A DNA stretch of 64,000 bases from an uncultured virus (IMG/VR IMGVR_UViG_3300037847_002883) (taxonomy: Duplodnaviria > Heunggongvirae > Uroviricota > Caudoviricetes): the IMG/VR virus record IMGVR_UViG_3300037847_002883. One strand, written 5' to 3'. The translations under genes were made by a program, and so were the position numbers. Of the stretch, positions 37,944 to 57,318 are shown piece by piece. How positions within the stretch are numbered: the stretch's first letter is position 1; each line of letters starts with the position of its first letter. The notes beneath the pieces were generated by a model, which searched no databases, was not told the origin of the DNA, and worked only from the letters and a program-made list of their open reading frames with translations.

Positions 37944-38171
37944 TTAATTGCCAAAGTCTGTTAAACTAGTTTGTTTATCGTATCTATTAATAAAATCATT
38001 AATATGGCTTTTAACTGTTTGTAGTTTCTGGCCTATTTCCCCTAGTTTAGTAATATCGGCTATACTCATATTCTTCATTTGTTTGCGTTTAGCCTTCATT
38101 TCAGATAAAATCGCGACAATCTCTTTATTGATACCCTGTAATAGTTCTAATGCCTTATCCTCACTAGACAT
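37944..38171 (-). CDS. Small helical hypothetical protein
   Basis: 75 aa, ends QTSLTDF (PIP-box-like). Confidence 0.5.
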   Translation of the reverse strand: MSSEDKALELLQGINKEIVAILSEMKAKRKQMKNMSIADITKLGEIGQKLQTVKSHINDFINRYDKQTSLTDFGN

Positions 38172-38677
38172 CCTGTATCATGTAATGGGAGTAGGCCATA
38201 CCCTATAATGGTGGCGGTTTTAGCCTTGTTTAATTAAAGTTAATGCTTCAAAGAGGGGCTTTTAAAGCCTTTCGCTCTAGATGAGAAGAAATAAAAAATT
38301 TGAAACAAAGCCATATGGTTGTAGATTATGAATGCGGGAACGGTTGTTAATAACTACCATTTTCATCTATTGTCTTATTTTCATCTTCCTCTACGGTTTG
38401 CTATAGAACGCTATTGGTAACTACAAAATGTTTGTTTACAGCCATCTATGATGAATAACCATCTAAGTGCAGCAACCCTAAATGATAGTTATTAAAAACA
38501 TTACAACCATATGGTGATGCTTTGCTATAACCCCCAAGTGGGACGGGAAGAATTACCTCTTTTCTTCCCGCCCCCGTATCTCCCTCTATTCCCTGTTTGT
38601 TTGGGTCATAGTGCCATGACGAGAGGCTCATGGCTAACGGGCCGTTTTGGGGTGCTACGGACTTCATGCCGCATTGT

Positions 38678-38887
38678 TTAATCGTATAGGCCAGCCAAAG
38701 CCCATTGATATTCTTCTTCCCATTGTCGCTTGTATTCATCAAGGAAATAGGCAAAGAAGCGACGAGAGGAGAAATTAGGGTTATCTCGCTGGAACATATC
38801 GGAAACGGCTTCAACGGTGGCTTGGCTCACATCAAAGACTTCTGCGAGGGTTTCAGCCATTTTCTTGTAGTGTCGTCGTTGGAACAT
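38678..38887 (-). CDS. Cassette gene, hypothetical (69 aa)
   Basis: MFQRRHYKKMAE...DNPNFSSRRF; TATA-like AAAACCTTATAT about 25 bp upstream (leaderless). Confidence 0.65.
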   Translation of the reverse strand: MFQRRHYKKMAETLAEVFDVSQATVEAVSDMFQRDNPNFSSRRFFAYFLDEYKRQWEEEYQWALAGLYD

Positions 38888-39001
38888 GATTAACCGCTTG
38901 ATAAGCGGATATAAGGTTTTATTACCAAAGTATGCAACCATATGGTAATTGCTTTGGTTTTACCTCAAGCAGTTTAGACCCATGCTTAGGGGTATTTAGG
39001 C

Positions 39002-39268
39002 TTAGATTACCTTAGAAGCGGCCCAGACCTCAAGTTTTTGGATTTCTTCAGTTTGTAGGCCACGGTTAGAAGTCGGGTTAGGGAAACCGTGAATCTCCCG
39101 ATAGTCGCGCAAACCAAAACGACGGTTCAAGTTATTCTTCGCGTATAGTCGCATTTTCTGGAATCTGTTGAAGTGTTGGTTAGAGTAGCCCAACCCATTG
39201 ATTTCGTTCAAACAGAACTCTTCTCCGCTTATCTTGCATACCCCAGTAACTGTCTTTTCTTTTGACAT
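39002..39268 (-). CDS. Cassette gene, hypothetical (88 aa)
   Basis: Between sites 3 and 4; TATA-like element about 25 bp upstream. Confidence 0.6.
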   Translation of the reverse strand: MSKEKTVTGVCKISGEEFCLNEINGLGYSNQHFNRFQKMRLYAKNNLNRRFGLRDYREIHGFPNPTSNRGLQTEEIQKLEVWAASKVI

Positions 39269-39383
39269 GATACTTCTTAAATTAGTAATATATTAGGGTT
39301 TTATTCAAAGTATCAAACCATATGGTTAGGCTTTGCATTAACCCCATATAGGGGCTTCACAGGGGAAAAAGCCGTGAAGAGTA

Positions 39384-39899
39384 TCATTCCTCCTCGGAAA
39401 CCTCCATATCTGCTTTCACAGGGGTTGGAACGATTTGTGGCACACCGTCTTTGACGGCGAGGCCATCCCAACGGTTTTCCTTGATTGCCTTAACCATGTA
39501 GGTATGAGCCTTACCACGGAAAGAATCAACCAATTCGCTGAAGGAGCCATAAACCCCGCCAGTTCGTCCGTGTGGCACGATAACCGACAGAATCAAGTCG
39601 TGATACTCAGTAGGGATTGTGGCAATAGCACCTGCCACGGTTTCCTCCACAGTCGCCAAAACAAGTTCCTGTTCGTCCGAAAGCGTGGATTCTCGCCCTC
39701 GTCGTGCCGCAGGAAAACCCTCCATAGTGGAGCCAATTGAACGAATAGCCGTCCAATAGGTGCTTCGTAGTTCATCAGTTCCCGCATTATCGCCCAAAGT
39801 GAGCGAAAGGAGAACAGCGTTCAAATTGTCGCTTGGTTCCTGTGTTTCGGCCCAAGCCCGCACTTTGTTTGTGTTCAATGTCCAATTCTTCATCTTCAT
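39384..39899 (-). CDS. Cassette gene, paralog family A copy 1
   Basis: MKMKNW...DELRSTYWTAIRSIGS...FPAARRGRES...PHGRTGG...RWDG; GAGGTGA SD. Confidence 0.8.
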   Translation of the reverse strand: MKMKNWTLNTNKVRAWAETQEPSDNLNAVLLSLTLGDNAGTDELRSTYWTAIRSIGSTMEGFPAARRGRESTLSDEQELVLATVEETVAGAIATIPTEYHDLILSVIVPHGRTGGVYGSFSELVDSFRGKAHTYMVKAIKENRWDGLAVKDGVPQIVPTPVKADMEVSEEE

Positions 39900-40064
39900 T
39901 TTTTTCACCTCTTTCCTAAAAAAGATACTCCGCGTCGTTTTTCCCCTGTGGAGCAATAACCCACGCAGGTTGGCGTATAAGGTTGTTTCTACGCAAAGCG
40001 ATAAACAACCATATGGTATTGCTTTGTTTATACCCTAAACAATACACCAACAAAAGAATAGGGC

Positions 40065-40313
40065 ATGAACAACCACCAAGCAACCGCGATTATGAATCTT
40101 ATTGCAGAAACCTTTCCAAGCCTTATCCCGTGGCTTGAAGGACAATACATGAAAGCCGTTTTTAAGGATATGACGCTCTATGCCGATGAACCACACGCTA
40201 TGATTGGATTAGCGGAATTTGCCGCCAGCATTGAGGCTTTTGCTGATGCTATCGCTGAAGCCTCACTTGAAGAGATGTTTCACCTTATGGCTGATATGAT
40301 GGGAGGTGCTTGA
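40065..40313 (+). CDS. Cassette gene, hypothetical (82 aa)
   Basis: Between sites 5 and 6. Confidence 0.6.
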   Translation: MNNHQATAIMNLIAETFPSLIPWLEGQYMKAVFKDMTLYADEPHAMIGLAEFAASIEAFADAIAEASLEEMFHLMADMMGGA

Positions 40314-40315
40314 GT

Positions 40316-40480
40316 ATGAGAATTTCACATTGTCCGACCTGCGGCACAGAATTGGCTAAGGATGATTTCATGTCCTTCGCTTTCATCTTAGGAGGCAACA
40401 TTTGCCGCCATTGTCTTGAGGACGACCCTTCGGGGTCAAAAGAACAAAGCATGACCATATGGTTGTGCTTTGCCAGTTGA
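40316..40480 (+). CDS. Small Zn-finger protein (54 aa) reading through palindromic site 6
   Basis: Own translation MRISHCPTCG...CRHC...; GGAGGTG SD. Confidence 0.5.
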   Translation: MRISHCPTCGTELAKDDFMSFAFILGGNICRHCLEDDPSGSKEQSMTIWLCFAS

Positions 40481-40526
40481 AAACGAAACCCCGCCGCTAA
40501 GCGGGGCTGCGAGGGGAAAACCCGCA

Positions 40527-41033
40527 TCATTCCTCTTCTTGACCTCCTTCAGCCGATTTCACGGCAGGTGGGGTCAATGCTGGGATTTCACCGTTCATGG
40601 TTCCATCCCAACGACCTTCTTTGTAGCCCTTAACGAGAGCGTCATAGGCCTTTTTGCCCATTGACTGAGCAAATGCCATAACATCGTCAAATGCGCCACC
40701 AGTTCGCCCATGAGGGAGAATAACGGTGGTGATGAGGTCAGGGTTAGTAATGCCCGCAAAGGCAGTAATAACCGCATTCTTCACAGAAGTAGCATTTAGG
40801 TCTACTTCTTCGGGCAAAGACGATTCTCGGCCTCGGCGGGCGGCTGGGAAATCATCATAAGGACTCCCAATTGAGCGAATAGCCGTCCAGTAAGTAGACC
40901 GCAATTCATCGCTATCCGTTGCATTTCCAAGTGTAATAGACAAAGAAATGGCTTGACCCACTTCTCCCCTATCTTCACGCTCAAGCCACGCTTGAACGGC
41001 ATTTGTGTTCTTAATCCAGTTATCTTGCTTCAT
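40527..41033 (-). CDS. Cassette gene, paralog family A copy 2
   Basis: Shares DELRSTYWTAIRSIGS, FPAARRGRES, PHGRTGG, RWDG with 39384 gene; GGAGG SD. Confidence 0.8.
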   Translation of the reverse strand: MKQDNWIKNTNAVQAWLEREDRGEVGQAISLSITLGNATDSDELRSTYWTAIRSIGSPYDDFPAARRGRESSLPEEVDLNATSVKNAVITAFAGITNPDLITTVILPHGRTGGAFDDVMAFAQSMGKKAYDALVKGYKEGRWDGTMNGEIPALTPPAVKSAEGGQEEE

Positions 41034-41202
41034 AATCAATTCCTCCAAAAAGGTTTGATGCGTCCGTTTTCCCCTCGGAGCAACCAACGGCGACCATAGG
41101 CGACTATGGTTGCTTTTTCATTAAACACTCGCAAAGCGAAAAGCAACCATATGGTAGGACTTTGGAAGTAGCCAAGCATAACCACCAATCAAGAGGATAA
41201 CC

Positions 41203-41496
41203 ATGCAAAGCGTGTTCGTCGTCCAAACCAATGAAATGCCTCTCTCCCGAAATCCCGATTGGAAAACTCAACTCCAATTCGGAATCTTCCGCCGTCGTGA
41301 AGATGCCGAGAAAACCATGTTCAATGTCATGGCTCGCAAAATGCGAGACGGAATTGATGAGATTCGTGAAATGACCTCCACCAAGCGAGGCAAGGGCAAA
41401 GCCGCCTACAATGCCAAAGTCTACGAAATCACCGAGGAAATCCCACGCTCAATTCGTGTTCACGAAATCCGTGTTTTGCCTGTCAGGGGTTTCTGA
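41203..41496 (+). CDS. Cassette gene, hypothetical (97 aa)
   Basis: GAGG SD; between sites 7 and 8. Confidence 0.65.
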   Translation: MQSVFVVQTNEMPLSRNPDWKTQLQFGIFRRREDAEKTMFNVMARKMRDGIDEIREMTSTKRGKGKAAYNAKVYEITEEIPRSIRVHEIRVLPVRGF

Positions 41497-41504
41497 CCTT
41501 GACG

Positions 41505-41523
41505 GGGGCTTCGGCCCCCTTTT
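41505..41523 (+). terminator. Hairpin-T terminator
   Basis: GGGGC-TTCG-GCCCC followed by CTTTT. Confidence 0.6.
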
Positions 41524-41643
41524 AGCTAAAACAAAGTATTACCATATGGTATTGTTTCTTTGTTATAAATACCCTCCAAAATTCAAATCTTGAGGTTTAG
41601 GATTTAAATCAATAAGTTAGGAGCATACCCACTTAGGAAGAAC

Positions 41644-41778
41644 ATGAAAGAAGCATACGAAGAAGTCAAGTGGTGGTATGAATTCGCTATGGGCCTAATG
41701 GAAGTCTGTCAAAAGAATTACCTCCATGCGGAGGTGCAAGAGGTGTTAAGTCGCCTTTGCGGGAGTGAGGAAGAATGA
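41644..41778 (+). CDS. Cassette gene, tiny hypothetical (44 aa)
   Basis: Own translation MKEAYEEVKWWYEF...GSEEE. Confidence 0.4.
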   Translation: MKEAYEEVKWWYEFAMGLMEVCQKNYLHAEVQEVLSRLCGSEEE

Positions 41779-41869
41779 AAAGATGACCGATAACCCCTTC
41801 AAATACCCATTATATGGGAGCGTTGGGGTGAATAACAAAGCATTACCATATGGTTGTTGTTATGCTTTG

Positions 41870-42378
41870 CACTAATCAAATAACCATAAGTGAAACGCCG
41901 CCTACTCCATGCATATGAGACTCACTCCGATACTTTGTTTCTTCGTCAAGAATTGGCGCGCCAATAAATGATTACTTGTTGCTTTCTCGCCTTACTGCTC
42001 TGTGTTTCGGCTTTGTTTCACTATGGTTTTATGGCCACTAATAGCCATAGGAATGTGAAAGGGTGGGATGAAGAATTGGGTATCTCCAAGACTGGAGCGA
42101 TTGGGTCGCTCTCACTAATTGGTGCTCCTTTGGTTTCTTAAGAGCCAGTCTGCTGATTTTACGAACATGGTTAGTAGCCATGCGCCTTTTGAGCCTTAAT
42201 CGCTTTCACAGGGAACAAATAATCTATGCTACTCAGCCGTCATATCTGCTATGTGTCCCACTACAGGAAAAATCACACCTTACCCCCACCAACAAGGGTA
42301 TTCGGTCAATCCCCTCCGAGGGGAGCGACCCCCCGAAGCAATAGAACCGAGCGATTATCGCTTATGGTTCTCCATGTG
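41870..42378 (+). ncRNA. Candidate about 500-nt structured non-coding RNA cassette
   Basis: No credible ORF; closing stem AACCATAAGTGA/TCGCTTATGGTT and many internal hairpins; G-U pairs favour + strand. Confidence 0.4.
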
Positions 42379-42448
42379 CAAAGCAATATAGAACCATATG
42401 GTTTTACTTTGGTAAAACCCCTCAGCAATTGCTTCACAGGGGGGATAA

Positions 42449-42811
42449 TCACCATTCATCCCTTGGGTTGAAATAAGTGTGCCTTCCCCTATCATCGGAG
42501 ACAAAAGAGCCGCCCCAACCCATTTCATATGAGCGAGTTCGCATTTCGGCGTTGTCCTCGTCAATTCGGTCTTGAATATCCTTGTCGGTATAATGGAACG
42601 GTTTGTGCTCTGCTGCGTATTCCTTCCAAATTGGGAGAATCTCGTCCAAGTCGTCCTTTTCCATCATTTCGGAAGAAACATCGGCCTTCTCCCAAAAGGT
42701 TTCATAGATGGTATCTTCGCAGAAGAAATACCTAACTCCTTCCATGTCCCTCACCCATCGGTTTTCATCGTCTGTTTTCTCAGTCAGCCATTTGTAAAAA
42801 GATTTTGCCAT
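42449..42811 (-). CDS. Cassette gene, acidic hypothetical (120 aa)
   Basis: GGAGGT SD; between sites 10 and 11. Confidence 0.65.
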   Translation of the reverse strand: MAKSFYKWLTEKTDDENRWVRDMEGVRYFFCEDTIYETFWEKADVSSEMMEKDDLDEILPIWKEYAAEHKPFHYTDKDIQDRIDEDNAEMRTRSYEMGWGGSFVSDDRGRHTYFNPRDEW

Positions 42812-43009
42812 TTTTCAACCTCCAGCGAAAAATTGACGGTAGCGGGCGATTAAGGTATTATTTATTCAAAGTAAATAATACCATATGGTTTGAATAAATC
42901 AAAGAGCGCAGAATGTTCTTATTTAGCCATATTCAAACACGCTGAAACGGGGAGGATTTTCAGCCCCCAAAAATCCGTCAAATTTGACAGGGTGTTTCTC
43001 AACTGTGGT

Positions 43010-43365
43010 TATATTAATTCGTATTCATATTCTAATATTCAATATTAGTATTATAGTAAAATAAATCGGTTGTCTCATGGTTGGGAGGGGATGAGACGAG
43101 ACAACACACGGAAGAATCATCAAGGTTATGCAACATAAGTAAAAATATATTTCTATTATCTCATTATCTCATCATCTCATCATCATCATCACTACTACTA
43201 CACACAACCCCTTATTTTCTTAGGGGTATGGAGAGAGAAAGATTCCCCTTTTGTGATGAGACGAGACGAGACAACTATTTTTTGCGTGTTTCCACAAGGT
43301 TCTAGGGGGTTGTGTTGCATAACCCCATCGTCTCAAGATGAGACAACAGGCGAGACAGTCTCATG
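43010..43365. repeat. AT-rich tract plus GAGAC/ATGAGACAAC iterated repeats; candidate replication origin or packaging site
   Basis: Repeats at 43070 (inverted), 43091, 43255, 43337, 43351; (ATC)n/(CTA)n run; at strand switch. Confidence 0.45.
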
Positions 43366-43550
43366 CACATGGCAATCAAAGTTATTTCAATGGGCAAACT
43401 ATTGTTGAAAATAAAATCTATTTGATTCAACAAACGGATTAATTTATCATTTAAGTTAAAATGTAAAAGTGAAAAAGGGCCGTAGAAACTAGGGGTGCTT
43501 GTGAAAAAGTTAGTGATTCCCTCAAGGGAGGTGCATTCGGAGGCATTTCT

Positions 43551-43566
43551 GGACTCCTTTATATAC
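43551..43566 (+). promoter_or_regulatory. TATA promoter GGACTCCTTTATATAC
   Basis: Identical 16-mer at 52208. Confidence 0.7.
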
Positions 43567-43615
43567 CGAAAGGCAACTGTTGAAAATACCCCGCAAAGGG
43601 GAAGGAGAGATATAC

Positions 43616-44089
43616 ATGGATGATACCACATGGGAAAGCCTCAAAATTGAGGTGAACGAATACCTTGAAGCCGACACCACGCTTGATGCAGGATTGCGTC
43701 AAGTCGTTGAATTGAACCTGCAAATCGGGACGAACAACCCCGATGAGCGAACTGCCGCCGAAGGTGCGCTTAAAGCACTTTTGAAGGGCCGTGATGGAAC
43801 CCCGTTCCGCCGAGGCCAAAAGAGCGCAGTTCCAGCCGCAGTTCGTGTTTCAATTGACCGAATCTGTGGAGTTGTTGAAGAAGCCGCTATTGGCTACTAC
43901 AACCACGATGCAGTTATTGGTGCAATTACCATGAAGCACATCAAATCTGGTGGCGGTGCTTACGATGGCGCAGAAGATTACGCTTCTGCCGTTGTGAAGA
44001 GAACCCGAAACAACCTTGGCAAGATGTTCAAGGACGGTTCTTGGGATGGTAGCGTTGATTCCCTTTTAGGCGAATCAAGCGACCTTTGA
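43616..44089 (+). CDS. Paralog family A copy 3 (divergent)
   Basis: W..L...V..YLE, RRGQKS, H...GGGAYD, FKDGSWDG align with 39384/40527 genes. Confidence 0.7.
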   Translation: MDDTTWESLKIEVNEYLEADTTLDAGLRQVVELNLQIGTNNPDERTAAEGALKALLKGRDGTPFRRGQKSAVPAAVRVSIDRICGVVEEAAIGYYNHDAVIGAITMKHIKSGGGAYDGAEDYASAVVKRTRNNLGKMFKDGSWDGSVDSLLGESSDL

Positions 44090-44136
44090 AGTTAATTCTT
44101 CAAACCCGCACAATTCCAGTTCTCTGAACTGAACAA

Positions 44137-44176
44137 CGGGGAATAGGGAGCCAAGGCTCCTTATTCTCCCTTTTTT
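44137..44176 (+). terminator. Hairpin-T terminator
   Basis: GGGGAATAGGGAGCC/GGCTCCTTATTCTCC then T6. Confidence 0.6.
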
Positions 44177-44249
44177 CCACAAGGGGAAAGAGAGGGGCTG
44201 AGAGGGGCTTTCGGGCCTCACCTCTCTTTCCCCGCCTTTGGGTGGTTAA

Positions 44250-44507
44250 ATGCGATTAGTAGAAGAAGTCTTTGTTAAGGCTAAAGAGGATTTAATTTGT
44301 CAATCCTGCGGTGTTGATATACCGAAGGATAGCAACCATCTTCTTGAGTCTTATGTTCATCATGGCGTTATTTCAACTAGTCATTACTGTTTAAACCCAA
44401 AGTGCAATCCACCAAATAATGTTCGTTTGAAGTTATTTTGGGGAACAATAGCCATAGGCGTTTCTCTGTGGCTAATTTACTTTTTCTATCAAAACGCAGG
44501 GTTTTAA
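44250..44507 (+). CDS. Zn-finger protein with C-terminal TM helix
   Basis: CQSC...HYC...C; hydrophobic tail. Confidence 0.55.
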   Translation: MRLVEEVFVKAKEDLICQSCGVDIPKDSNHLLESYVHHGVISTSHYCLNPKCNPPNNVRLKLFWGTIAIGVSLWLIYFFYQNAGF

Positions 44508-44648
44508 GTCTATTCGCTTAGGCGACCCGTGGCGGCGTGGCATATACGCCCTCGGCAGGTGGGGGTATGCTTGAACAGTCGCCAAGCGACTTCATTTCAC
44601 TTTTACAATTTGAAATGGTGTGGCTTTTCTTCTGTTTGAGTAATTCAC

Positions 44649-44733
44649 GCTGAGATGGCTGAGTTTGGTTAAAAGCGCAGGGCTTAAACTCCTGTCCGTA
44701 TATGGTTCGCAGGTTCAAATCCTGCTCTCAGCA
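44649..44733 (+). tRNA. tRNA-Leu(UAA)
   Basis: Acceptor GCTGAGA/TCTCAGC, anticodon loop CT-TAA-AC, long variable arm, GGTTCAAATCC T-arm. Confidence 0.88.
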
Positions 44734-44742
44734 TCTTTTCAC

Positions 44743-44817
44743 GGAACGGTAGCACAGTCTGGTTAGTGCGCCAGTCTCATAAACTGGTGGTCGCAAGTTC
44801 AAATCTTGCCCGTTCCA
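44743..44817 (+). tRNA. tRNA with CAU anticodon (elongator Met or Ile2)
   Basis: Acceptor GGAACGG/CCGTTCC, CCAGT-CTCATAA-ACTGG, GTTCAAATC. Confidence 0.88.
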
Positions 44818-44918
44818 TTTTACATGGGGAAGGTTGAACAGGGGGCTAAAGAGTAATGACCGAGCAATCGGTTTTGTTCCCTTCCCCGCCTATTCCACAT
44901 TTTTAAGAGGTAATAAAA

Positions 44919-46346
44919 ATGAAACATACAAATGAACAAATCGCAATCTTTGATTGCATAGAAAACACAGAAGACCACCTAATTATTAATGCAGGTGCAG
45001 GAACAGGGAAAACGACAACGATTGTTGAAGCAGCAAATCGTATCAATGGACAGAAAGCCGCATTCTTGGCTTTCAATAAGTCTATTGCTACTGAATTAGC
45101 AGAAAGACTTCCAACCGATGTGGAAGCGAAAACCTTCCACGCTTTCGGATTCGCTGCGATTCGTGCGGCTGGTGTTAAAACAAAGGTGAACAATTTTAAG
45201 GTCAATAACATTATTAAAGACCTTCATGGTGCTGATTTCTATGTCGCTCCACTAAAGAAACTTGTTTCTCTCGTTAAGGGAAGTATGGTTGATGGAACCG
45301 ACAAAAAGGCAATTAACCAACTGATTGATGAATACAATATCAACTTCAATTCTGACCGTGAAGAACGAATTGCAGTAGAATCAATACCTGCAATTCTCAC
45401 GATGTGCCGAACACAGACTCATATCATTGATTTTGATGACATGATTTGGATGCCCATTGTTAATGGCTATCCTTTCCCAAAATATGATGTTTTGTTTGTT
45501 GATGAAGCACAGGATTTTAACGAAGTGCAACGAGAAATGATTTCTTTGTGCGTCAATGGTGGCCGTTGTATTATTGTCGGTGATAAAAACCAAGCAATTT
45601 ACGGTTTCCGTGGTGCTGATTCAAACTCAATTGCCATGTTCCGACAACGACTTCTCAAGGGTGAGAGAAAAATCAGCGAATTTCCTCTCTCAATTACTTG
45701 GCGTTGTCCTAAATCGGTTGTTCGTGAGGCCAACCGATATGTGCGTGAGTTTAATGCTCCTGATTTTGCCGAAGAAGGCACAGTTATTGTAGATGCTCCG
45801 TTCAATCCACAACGAAATGATATGGTTCTTTGCCGATACAATGCTCCTTTGGTGTCTGCTTTCTATGATTTGATTTCACAGGGCAAATCGGCTTATGTTC
45901 TTGGTCGTGATATGACGAAGGGTTTAATTACCGCCGTTCAAAAGATTTCTAAGAACAACCACATGGGCGTTGAAGAGTTCACGCAGTTATTCCAAAAAGA
46001 CTTTGCTTACAACTATCAACGACTTCTTGACCAAAACAAAGAGAATCAAGCGATGGCTCTTGAAGATAAGCGTGATTGTATTATGATTTTCGTCAAGAAA
46101 GCAACGACTGTTGGTGGAATCATTGAAGAGATTAAGCGTGTCTTTGATGGAAATGATGAAGGTGAAATCATGCTTTCAACTGTTCACAAGGCTAAAGGTC
46201 TTGAAGCAGACAATGTTTATATTCTCGCAACTGAGCGAATGCCTCATCCATACGGTAGTTTGGAAGAGAACAACATTTGCTATGTAGCGATTACACGGGC
46301 CAAAAAGAATTTGTTCTATTGTGGCCCAAAACCAGGAAAAATTTGA
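44919..46346 (+). CDS. Superfamily 1 UvrD/Rep-like helicase
   Basis: AGAGTGKTT, VDEAQD, GDKNQAIYGFRG, STVHKAKGLE, YVAITRAK. Confidence 0.92.
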   Translation: MKHTNEQIAIFDCIENTEDHLIINAGAGTGKTTTIVEAANRINGQKAAFLAFNKSIATELAERLPTDVEAKTFHAFGFAAIRAAGVKTKVNNFKVNNIIKDLHGADFYVAPLKKLVSLVKGSMVDGTDKKAINQLIDEYNINFNSDREERIAVESIPAILTMCRTQTHIIDFDDMIWMPIVNGYPFPKYDVLFVDEAQDFNEVQREMISLCVNGGRCIIVGDKNQAIYGFRGADSNSIAMFRQRLLKGERKISEFPLSITWRCPKSVVREANRYVREFNAPDFAEEGTVIVDAPFNPQRNDMVLCRYNAPLVSAFYDLISQGKSAYVLGRDMTKGLITAVQKISKNNHMGVEEFTQLFQKDFAYNYQRLLDQNKENQAMALEDKRDCIMIFVKKATTVGGIIEEIKRVFDGNDEGEIMLSTVHKAKGLEADNVYILATERMPHPYGSLEENNICYVAITRAKKNLFYCGPKPGKI

Positions 46347-55316: not shown

Positions 55317-56474
55317 ATGAAACTAAGAATTAAAAAACCAGATGATAGTAATGATTATTTTGAAACGAACATTACTTGTGCTACCTATAATTTTAGAGAA
55401 GTTATGACGGTTAGTTATCTGCGAAGTGCTAAAGACCCAATTCAAGCAGGATTGGAAGCCTTTTGGAAAGATATTATTTCTCCTAGAAAATCAAGGAGAA
55501 CCTATTATAATGGCTTTGGATATAACTTTCATCATATTGTTTTTATTGAAGGTTGTCCTATCGTTCTTTCAAGAGAAGGCATTCGTTATCAACTGAATGG
55601 TAAATCATACAGCCTTGCGACTATTTGTTCTGCTTTAGCAAGAATTACTTACAAATCATGTTTTGAGAAGAAGCCAGACGCTTTATTGTCTGCTTTGTAT
55701 GCTACACTTAATTTACCAGAGAATGTCAAATATTGTATTGAAAATCGTGCGCCATTTCATTTCTTCCAAGACTTTGAGAAGCAAGATGTTCGTTTGAATG
55801 TCGTTCAAATTGATGATAAGATGCTCGCTATGGAAATCAGCGATGGTGTTTGGGGTGAAATAACTCCGAAGCAACTTGACTCTTACTGTAATTTCTATGT
55901 TCATGGTAAGCGAAGAGGCTCATGGAAGTATCTTTCTCCTAAATCCCTATATACTAGGTTGATGGGTCGTGAACCAACGGAGGCTGAATTGAAAGTGATG
56001 GTCGCCTTTTTGATGCAGAACAGAATGCAAGACATTGTGGATGCAAGAGCATTAGAATTAGTGGCTGATATGTTGGTTCAACACAAAGGCCGACTATCTG
56101 CTGAATATGACAATGATGGGGTTCTAACAAATCTCTTCGTTAGAGGTAAAGATTATGATTGGCAATTGACAAATAATCGCTATAAGTCTGGTATTCAAAT
56201 GGTTTCAACCTATGTCTGGCAACCAGTCTTAGAAGTCATTAGAGATGAAGATGATGTTAAAATCATCAAGGAAAAGAAAATGTCCGAACCAGATTGGCGT
56301 GGCCCAATTTGTATTGATAATATGGCTGATGGCTCTCCATTAGGCGACCAATTCGCCGCAAGAGCGTTAGCCCTTCTTAACGACTCCTTTACAATAACAA
56401 TAGTGAATACGATTAAGCGGTATCTTGCCGCCGAACCAAATGAATATAGGATTGATAATGATGATTTGCGATGA
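55317..56474 (+). CDS. Hypothetical protein; C-terminus possibly E2-like (GPICID)
   Basis: 385 aa; WRGPICIDN resembles E2 active-site G-x-I-C-L-D. Confidence 0.4.
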   Translation: MKLRIKKPDDSNDYFETNITCATYNFREVMTVSYLRSAKDPIQAGLEAFWKDIISPRKSRRTYYNGFGYNFHHIVFIEGCPIVLSREGIRYQLNGKSYSLATICSALARITYKSCFEKKPDALLSALYATLNLPENVKYCIENRAPFHFFQDFEKQDVRLNVVQIDDKMLAMEISDGVWGEITPKQLDSYCNFYVHGKRRGSWKYLSPKSLYTRLMGREPTEAELKVMVAFLMQNRMQDIVDARALELVADMLVQHKGRLSAEYDNDGVLTNLFVRGKDYDWQLTNNRYKSGIQMVSTYVWQPVLEVIRDEDDVKIIKEKKMSEPDWRGPICIDNMADGSPLGDQFAARALALLNDSFTITIVNTIKRYLAAEPNEYRIDNDDLR

Positions 56475-57318
56475 ATGTGGTAGCAACAATAACTCATTTG
56501 ATGAGATACAAGGCGAAAGAATTTGTAATGACTGTGGGCTTATCTTAGTCCAAGAGATGTTTGAAGAAACCGTTCACATTTTAGATACGGGCGGGAACCT
56601 CAAACATTCTGCTGATAAAGGCAGATTAGGTTCTGTTATTACAGGTAAAGGTTCTTACAAGTTTAATAAGTTCGGTAAGAATAGCGTAATTCCTCAGCAT
56701 ATTCAAAATGCTCTAATGCATTGTAATATGATTTTGGCTCATGTTGCTCCTAATTTGGGATTGAATGAGCGTGTTGAGAAACTGTATCTTGATTTACATA
56801 GTAAGGGCGTATTCGGAAGAAGTCAAATTGAAGCAAGAGCAACAGCAGTTGTCTTTTATGCTTTGAGAGAGAATGGAACGCCACATACCTTTGCAGAAGT
56901 TTCTGCTGAATTTGATGCTAACTTAAAATCAGTTAAGAGATTAGTTAGAAAGATTAACCAAGTCTTTAGAAACAAAGCAGGTTATAGTCCTGTTAATCCA
57001 CAGTATCTTTTAGAGAAAACTCTCAATGATATTACCGATGATTTGGTGTTTAGGAGACAAACTATCAAGGTGTTGGAGTTCTTTGAAACAAAGGTAGCGC
57101 AAAATACCTTCAACAAGGGAAGGTCATATTATGCTTCTATTATTTGGATTTCAGCAAACATGAATGTGAACACATTGATAACTCAAAATCTAATCACAAA
57201 GAAAACGGGGTTCTCTCGTTTCAATATTAGACGACAAACAAAAGCAATTCTATCTATGATTGGTTTAGAACTAGCCAGTCAAGTAAAAGGAAAACAATTA
57301 AGCGAACTAGGTGAATAA
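56458..57318 (+). CDS. tfb: Transcription initiation factor TFB/TFIIB-like protein
   Basis: N-terminal Zn ribbon CDECG...CNDCGLI, then cyclin-like repeats (GRSQIEARATAVVFYALR; GRSYYASIIWIS). Confidence 0.8.
   Translation: MMICDECGSNNNSFDEIQGERICNDCGLILVQEMFEETVHILDTGGNLKHSADKGRLGSVITGKGSYKFNKFGKNSVIPQHIQNALMHCNMILAHVAPNLGLNERVEKLYLDLHSKGVFGRSQIEARATAVVFYALRENGTPHTFAEVSAEFDANLKSVKRLVRKINQVFRNKAGYSPVNPQYLLEKTLNDITDDLVFRRQTIKVLEFFETKVAQNTFNKGRSYYASIIWISANMNVNTLITQNLITKKTGFSRFNIRRQTKAILSMIGLELASQVKGKQLSELGE

Follow-up and report, generated by a model that had tools for sequence, protein, structure and literature searches.

Gene-specific complementarity between leader and trailer is under selection in two paralogous genes of an uncultured virus

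Two paralogous genes in the 64,000-nucleotide record of an uncultured virus (IMG/VR IMGVR_UViG_3300037847_002883; we use the window to mean this whole stretch of DNA) raise the question of why the sequence ahead of a gene should be matched by its reverse complement directly behind the same gene, whether that match is maintained by selection, and in which molecule it acts. Both genes, which we refer to as p1 and p2, lie on the minus strand, and the complementary leader and trailer flanks which the original prediction had described for each of them agree with those found here in sequence and in coordinates (Table 1). A repeat finder gives p1 arms of 17 nt and p2 arms of 16 nt, each 94% complementary to its partner, with the p1 leader arm reading GCUCC-ACAGGGGAAAAA and its complement placed behind the gene. 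Each pair of arms is accompanied by a second helix which overlaps the stop codon of p1 (39384–39386) and contains that of p2 (40527–40529), so that in both genes the trailer-side complementarity starts inside the stop codon, as had also been predicted. The partners are 545–567 nt apart on one mRNA of a DNA virus.

The length of the arms does not answer the question. There are 45 exact inverted repeats of at least 11 nt spaced 150–1600 nt apart in the window, such repeats being common by chance, and as arm length alone is not beyond chance the case rests on comparison with relatives. Within the window, the 9-mer AGGGGAAAA occurs four times where 1.27 copies are expected, all of them in the four p1 and p2 arms, and five of 100 shuffles also reach four copies.

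Relatives of the encoded proteins were confined to uncultured marine sequences, where 240 of 333 candidate proteins reached E ≤ 0.001, and 33 loci came from IMG/VR. Cultured phage records gave no match at either the DNA or the protein level, and for metagenome relatives we used the best 80 of 360 stretches. Complete flanks were available for 104 p1 genes, 52 p2 genes and 18 genes of a distant third paralog (p3; 43616–44089, plus strand), and these were reduced by de-duplication to 75, 43 and 15 distinct flank sets, respectively. The p1 cassette alignment contains 49 whole cassettes, one per distinct arm pair and with a protein identity of at least 35%, while a gapless alignment anchored on the GC clamp contains 64 of 84 distinct arm pairs (42 p1 and 22 p2 cassettes), with the other 20 left out as they have clamp variants that the automatic anchor could not place. 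The 14 cassettes that were missed by a motif pattern all have the same layout, and the arms are retained in relatives whose proteins are only 27–32% identical.

In this wider comparison the arms fit their own partners and not those of other genes. The longest Watson-Crick run between a leader and its own trailer was 8–16 nt (median 11) in all of the 117 cassettes taken from viral and marine metagenome contigs, compared with 4–12 nt (median 6) in 571 non-cognate pairs. Every one of the 54 cassettes from the IMG/VR loci gives a leader–trailer duplex, with energies of −29 to −55 kcal/mol, and in this set the cognate mean of −41.3 kcal/mol contrasts with −25.5 kcal/mol for non-cognate combinations (n = 2814); for 118 cassettes including the metagenome loci the mean was −44.4 kcal/mol, against −23.8 kcal/mol with a shuffled trailer. 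The two paralogs are also orthogonal to one another, since in 14 viruses the means were −35.6 kcal/mol for own partners and −16.9 kcal/mol for crossed ones. In scans of the window, and on reading by eye those exact repeats that were listed for four complete relatives, such arms turned up around no other gene family, and when the other window genes were scanned for end-pairing nothing was found beyond background (best −31.8 against a 1% level of −32.9; longest open reading frames (ORFs) were used and some starts are misplaced).

The changes between cassettes are of the kind expected of a maintained stem. The original prediction had suggested from the two paralogs that sequence changes while pairing is kept, and had proposed a search for covariation among homologs; this is borne out by many two-sided changes and by a covariation score of 0.262 in the 49 p1 cassettes, compared with 0.094 in shuffles (none of 500 reach the observed score) and no more than 0.105 when the partners were slid along each other. 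In helix 1 of these cassettes 86% of the alignment cells are paired and 11 of the 15 pairs have changed on both sides. In the clamp-anchored set, positions 1 and 2 are invariant (G–C and C–G) in all 64 cassettes, and core positions 6–15 are paired in 96.7% of the p1 cells and 95.0% of the p2 cells but in only 72.5% and 69.3% when partners are shuffled, with two to four pair types per position and nearly all pairs at positions 6–13 being Watson-Crick. The inner helices are likewise partner-specific (−13.1 kcal/mol for cognate and −8.0 for swapped partners in p1, −10.9 and −8.05 in p2, with none of 2000 permutations reaching the observed values), and their fit holds despite internal loops of unequal size and reaches into the last codons of the gene.

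Several observations weigh against this interpretation and should be set beside it. Two of the five covariation measures applied to the 49 p1 cassettes were not exceptional, as there were 16 pairs with two-sided changes compared with 12.3 in shuffles (nine of 500 reach 16) and 36 further pair types compared with 34.1 (131 of 500 reach 36). The cassettes share kinship, and the permutation and Wilcoxon figures therefore overstate their independence. The selected duplex is also not a perfect one, as stem position 4 is a conserved mismatch in 61 of the 64 cassettes (U.U in 50, C.A in eight and C.C in three) and is paired in only three. Taken with the evidence given above, we conclude that the leader–trailer complementarity is under selection, that it is specific to each gene and constant in orientation, and that it is located at the ends of the transcription unit.

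What the arms might do depends on the kind of virus that carries them. The gene content identifies the window not as a bacteriophage but as a group-B magrovirus, one of the viruses of Marine Group II archaea. The best matches of the portal protein are to haloarchaeal tailed viruses (30% identity, E = 1e-56), and the window carries a DNA-ligase domain in the structural module, ribonucleotide reductase, GroEL, and the transfer RNAs tRNA-Leu, tRNA-Met and tRNA-Arg. The magrovirus paper (PMC5434244) gives halovirus-like structural genes, a ligase in the structural module, GroEL, ribonucleotide reductase, tRNA-Leu and tRNA-Arg for group B, and with the exception of tRNA-Met the traits of the window are exactly those given there; in its main text the words 'promoter', 'palindrom' and 'inverted repeat' do not occur. 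We also note a weak TFIIB-type zinc-ribbon match at 56425–57318. The archaeal host changed our reading of the motifs found upstream of the two genes, and a sigma-70 interpretation, which had failed on spacing, was abandoned.

The upstream box, CAACC-TTATAC, starts exactly 30 nt before the G of the clamp in 39 of the 64 cassettes, and a T precedes the clamp G. An archaeal TATA box and initiator have this same geometry, and we infer that the box is an archaeal TATA box. From this geometry the RNA is predicted to start at the first paired base, and the duplex probably extends right up to the mRNA 5′ terminus. A start of the RNA downstream of the leader arm would, according to the original prediction, have told against it, and the start predicted here is instead at the outer edge of that arm. 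Sequences of p1 and p2, or close variants of them, are represented among contigs of several marine RNA libraries (39250–41250), which places these genes in marine RNA preparations, and two of the contigs end exactly at 41081, the clamp G of p2, although they come from two runs of one study and are a weak hint only. In the other direction, the p1 RNA contigs stop at 39923 and 39901, within the leader arm or without reaching it, with contig ends in general being weak evidence. At the far end of the cassette, a small hairpin made of a C-run and a G-run directly follows the trailer arm in 53 of the 64 cassettes, and its mirror image before the leader was found in none. Two other tests of the upstream motif were set aside, one being a histogram of TATA distances over all window genes, for which there were too few matches, and the other a mirrored-TATA test, which was confounded by a palindromic motif.

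When leader and trailer are co-folded they form three helices, consisting of the clamp with the core, a helix at the stop codon, and a short helix beside the ribosome-binding site. This long duplex has a mean energy of −36.1 kcal/mol, compared with −14.9 kcal/mol for the arms folded apart, and is thus some 21 kcal/mol more stable. It ends 15–23 nt 5′ of the ATG with the Shine-Dalgarno sequence outside, so that the start site is not buried. The arms can also fold locally, with a leader hairpin opening at the clamp in 59 of the 64 cassettes and a trailer hairpin closing at the clamp in 50, as judged from folds of each sequence. An RNAalifold analysis of the MAFFT leader alignment had given no consensus hairpin because the 3′ halves were misaligned, and the folds of individual sequences were used in its place. 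Pairing in the leader hairpin is kept through changes of sequence (GCUCC/GGAGU, GCUAC/GUGGC and GCGUC/GGCGC), but both local hairpins are weak (mean z of −1.5 and −1.8). One stem pair is flipped between the leader and trailer hairpins and this results in the conserved mismatch of the long duplex. The picture suggested by these folds is of two hairpins with complementary loops that would be able to merge into one long duplex. Rfam contains no family matching the arms.

The explanation that we favour, and hold to be somewhat better than an even bet, is that these arms are an end-pairing RNA which closes a monocistronic mRNA and protects both of its ends, and possibly aids re-initiation; the pairing in RNA, the exact RNA ends and the function are what we infer here. 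Each gene would be a one-gene transcription unit of an archaeal virus, the group-B magrovirus, in which the host RNA polymerase would start at or within a few bases of the G of the GCUYC clamp, ~21 nt past the TATA-like box. The first 30–40 nt of the RNA would fold as a 5′-terminal hairpin whose loop displays 9–13 gene-specific nucleotides, and the 3′ untranslated region (UTR), which would start inside the stop codon, would bear the reverse complement and present it likewise as a hairpin. The two hairpins would then pair, probably by loop–loop contact before anything else and subsequently as an imperfect duplex of ~25–35 bp made up of the clamp, the core helix and two inner helices, tying the 5′ terminus to the 3′ end and closing the mRNA into a loop. 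Neither end would be single-stranded for the entry of an exonuclease, which may give a long-lived message, and a ribosome terminating within the duplex would be released ~15–20 nt from its own start site. A gain in re-initiation is possible because the stop codon is in the duplex and close to the start. An extended and unlikely version of this is a closed loop made from RNA only, in which the 5′ hairpin would hold a private and fast-evolving address of 9–13 nt and the complement would sit behind the stop codon of the same gene; terminating ribosomes would open the duplex and return to the start codon, the closed state would hide the ends, and the addresses of paralogs would be orthogonal against cross-pairing.

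The arms could instead be a feature of the DNA, where the same double-stranded site is present twice in opposite orientation around the gene and is either bound by a co-evolving protein, possibly the p1 or p2 product, or serves to recombine or invert the cassette. We regard this as rather unlikely, and consider RNA to be quite probably the molecule that pairs, on evidence of moderate strength. The arms are placed within the transcription unit and their orientation is invariant, with the terminator-like hairpin outside the trailer and not mirrored at the leader, and with the leader always the G-rich arm; the complementarity crosses loops of unequal size into the coding end, which is not required of a duplicated protein site, and the mismatch at position 4 is conserved between the two copies. 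For the inner helices, pairing is better on the sense strand in 48 of 64 cassettes (p = 1.6e-6; −12.3 kcal/mol compared with −10.0 for antisense, and 87 G.U pairs compared with 40), and for whole arms in 42 of 64 (p = 0.0013; 92 G.U compared with 59). A first count of 158 G.U to 16 A.C was set aside for its bias, since folding software is able to introduce G.U pairs and in no case A.C pairs. A number of results count against pairing in RNA. The core has no G.U at positions 5–12 (none in 512 cells) and no strand bias, a strict pattern which is what copying or recognition at the level of DNA might be expected to give, and in helix 1 cells of the G.U type are barely more numerous than those of the A.C type (16 and 11). 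Some 40% of the sense-strand asymmetry can be attributed to base composition, as the sense strand has an advantage of 0.96 kcal/mol in non-cognate pairs as well (302 of 501), and an earlier strand test using wider, looser stretches around the arms was weak and not significant (sense better in 33 of 54, p = 0.07). A DNA site would also agree with the restriction of the arms to one gene family and their being private to each paralog, and with signs that cassettes move. The latter are an orphan arm at 42431–42448, described below, and the order of the two genes, which varies by lineage, with p2 before p1 in the window and in loci L009, L010, L012 and L019–L021, and p1 before p2 in most others. 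Recombination is made less plausible by a Pfam scan of 45 window ORFs, which gave no recombinase family. This and the lack of any mirrored layout (0 of 64) are also the grounds on which an invertible DNA segment or lox-like pair was rejected, and a transposon with terminal inverted repeats was rejected because the arms are not conserved among copies, as seen in the crossed paralogs and also in orthologs.

If the molecule is RNA, the main rival to a stably closed message is a regulatory switch, in which translation or a protein (perhaps the p1 or p2 product itself) would decide whether the hairpins kiss or remain separate, and the state of the hairpins would set the translation or decay of the protein's own message. 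We think this improbable; in its favour, the local hairpins are present at the clamp in most leaders and trailers with leader pairing kept through changes, the flipped pair and the mismatch that it leaves in the cross duplex suggest that both folds are kept, and the arms have been seen only around the genes of this family. The hairpins are however weak when their summed energy is compared with that of the duplex, the Shine-Dalgarno sequence is outside the duplex, and the encoded protein has no recognisable RNA-binding family or fold. Still less probable, and in our view very unlikely, is a processing stem which would be cut by an endonuclease specific for double strands or bulges in order to trim or circularise the message. 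Stems of this sort flank the 16S and 23S rRNAs, where they provide RNase III sites in bacteria and bulge-helix-bulge motifs in archaea, and they resemble the arms described here in that a whole gene is flanked by inverted repeats which form a long, imperfect stem in the transcript; in addition, the abrupt stop of RNA contigs at the p2 stem base could be a processed end. Here, in contrast, the gene is protein-coding, and a bulge-helix-bulge (two 3-nt bulges with 4 bp between them) was found in none of the 64 predicted duplexes, for which only minimum-energy folds were considered. Genes for RNase III and RtcB were not found in five complete relatives (each 100% by CheckV), with RNase III matched in bacterial control genomes only, and as a promoter-like box and a terminator-like hairpin come with every cassette there is no precursor needing to be cut. 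Of the original proposal of a selected long-range stem closing the mRNA, for processing, circularisation, stability or autoregulation, the selected and gene-specific complementarity stands, and processing and circularisation are the functions that we least favour.

End-pairing as we propose it has few parallels, and to our knowledge the prokaryotic mRNAs whose two ends pair number only a handful, all of them bacterial. The closest known mechanism is that of hok, a type I toxin–antitoxin system in which the message encodes a membrane toxin of ~50 amino acids (aa) and has an antisense partner, and in which tac–fbi pairing joins the 5′ end of the mRNA to the 3′ end of the same molecule and keeps the message silent until the 3′ end is trimmed. 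The likeness is in the pairing of the two ends, the closing of the molecule and the covariation among homologs, whereas the arms described here belong to a 171-aa helical protein with an archaeal host, form a longer duplex, and do not sequester the start site. A locus of the hok/sok type could be ruled out, as the product is not a small hydrophobic toxin but a protein of 171 aa with an all-helical model and an acidic tail. The kissing hairpins of CopA/CopT and RNA I/RNA II show that complementary loops can nucleate a longer duplex, and the panhandles and cyclisation elements of RNA viruses that complementary termini can close a molecule, but the former are made by opposite strands of one locus and the latter serve RNA replication, while here the partners are separate sites on a single mRNA of a DNA virus. 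In terms of biology the nearest known parallel is haloarchaeal translation control, where Brenneis and Soppa (2009; PMC2636863) describe a functional interaction between 5′ and 3′ UTRs which is a genetic requirement given without a pairing mechanism; in our case there is direct complementarity in the sequence. In cyanophage infection, double-stranded RNA from antisense transcripts is described as protecting messages from RNase E in a bacterial host (PMC3113571), which is similar in that a duplex shields messages from a host nuclease in an infected marine microbe, and different in that pairing would here be within one molecule and in an archaeal virus. In open-access text, no account of stems like these in the messages of phages or archaeal viruses came to light.

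The proteins provide little guidance to function. The p1 product has an acidic tail and a predicted all-helical model with a pLDDT of 82.7, and shares 47% identity with the p2 protein. The encoded protein has no match in Pfam, PHROGs, NCBIfam, PDB sequences, or by Foldseek against PDB, and structure searches returned only generic helix bundles VIA-wide (Z ≤ 7.8), no usable match in the ESM Atlas, and one unnamed relative in BFVD. The distant paralog p3 is 26% identical to p1. The region upstream of it (43556–43601) has a near-consensus box, CCTTTATATACC, followed ~22 nt later by a 5′ hairpin adjacent to the ribosome-binding site. Among relatives the stem of this hairpin shows compensatory changes (CCCC/GGGG, GCCC/GGGC and UGCCA/UGGCA), but no complement to it was found in the p3 trailer.

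Table 1. Features of the p1 and p2 cassettes, with coordinates given as positions in the window. Partners in each duplex are the leader and trailer entries of the same name.
Feature	Coordinates	Strand	Remarks
p1 TATA-like box (AACCTTATAC)	39975–39984	−	Starts 30 nt 5′ of the first paired base; putative archaeal TATA box
p1 leader arm	39938–39954	−	Invariant GC clamp, mismatch position and variable core; G at 39954 is the predicted mRNA 5′ end
p1 leader inner helix	39924–39931	−	Doubles as the 3′ strand of the local leader hairpin
p1 gene	39384–39899	−	171 aa, predicted all-helical, no known family
p1 trailer inner helix	39378–39385	−	Overlaps the stop codon
p1 trailer arm	39354–39370	−	Core complement and clamp
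p1 C-run/G-run small hairpin, terminator-like	39342–39354	−	Directly 3′ of the trailer arm
p2 TATA-like box (AACCATAGTC)	41102–41111	−	Starts 30 nt 5′ of the clamp G
p2 leader arm	41066–41081	−	G at 41081 is the predicted 5′ end; two RNA-library contigs stop here
p2 leader inner helix	41056–41062	−	Pairs with 40523–40529
p2 gene	40527–41033	−	168 aa, 47% identical to p1
p2 trailer inner helix	40523–40529	−	Stop codon inside
p2 trailer arm	40506–40521	−	From the repeat finder
p2 terminator-like hairpin	40489–40506	−	3′ of the trailer arm

The cassettes are found in an island (38001–46000) between the structural module on the minus strand and the replication module on the plus strand, and this has a G+C content of 43–46% compared with 34–42% elsewhere in the window. 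Ten exact copies of a palindrome, ACCATATGGT, flanked by CAAAG/CTTTG are all located within 4.4 kb of small genes in this island (38506–42889), beside nearly every cassette, and in relatives the palindrome is found 54–73 nt 5′ of the clamp and also just past the trailer hairpin; it is probably a binding site for a regulator or a recombination hot spot. The genes between p1 and p2 also differ among loci L009–L033 and the window. The orphan arm (42431–42448, minus strand) is of the trailer type, with a core complement and clamp close to those of p1, and overlaps the stop codon of an unrelated 120-aa gene (42449–42811) whose leader contains no partner for it, and it looks like the remnant of a cassette exchange. 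Nearby, a stretch without a convincing ORF (42060–42335, minus strand) matches the manA RNA family (RF01745) at 47.4 bits, which is below the gathering score of 55.2 (E = 6e-10), and a region with no clear genes (43080–43380) has recurring words similar to GAGACGAGACAAC, a tract of CAT/CTC triplets and, at 43124 and 43324, the two arms of a 12-nt inverted repeat.

These cassettes provide a first view of promoter-to-terminator architecture in the magroviruses, which are abundant uncultured viruses of the ocean. With more than 100 natural variants of one design, each with matched and gene-specific arms, the self-closure of an archaeal message becomes directly testable. If the RNA-only closed loop outlined above were true, it would be a base-pairing counterpart of the loop that joins cap and poly(A) in eukaryotes, and the arms would be a natural set of orthogonal UTR pairs.

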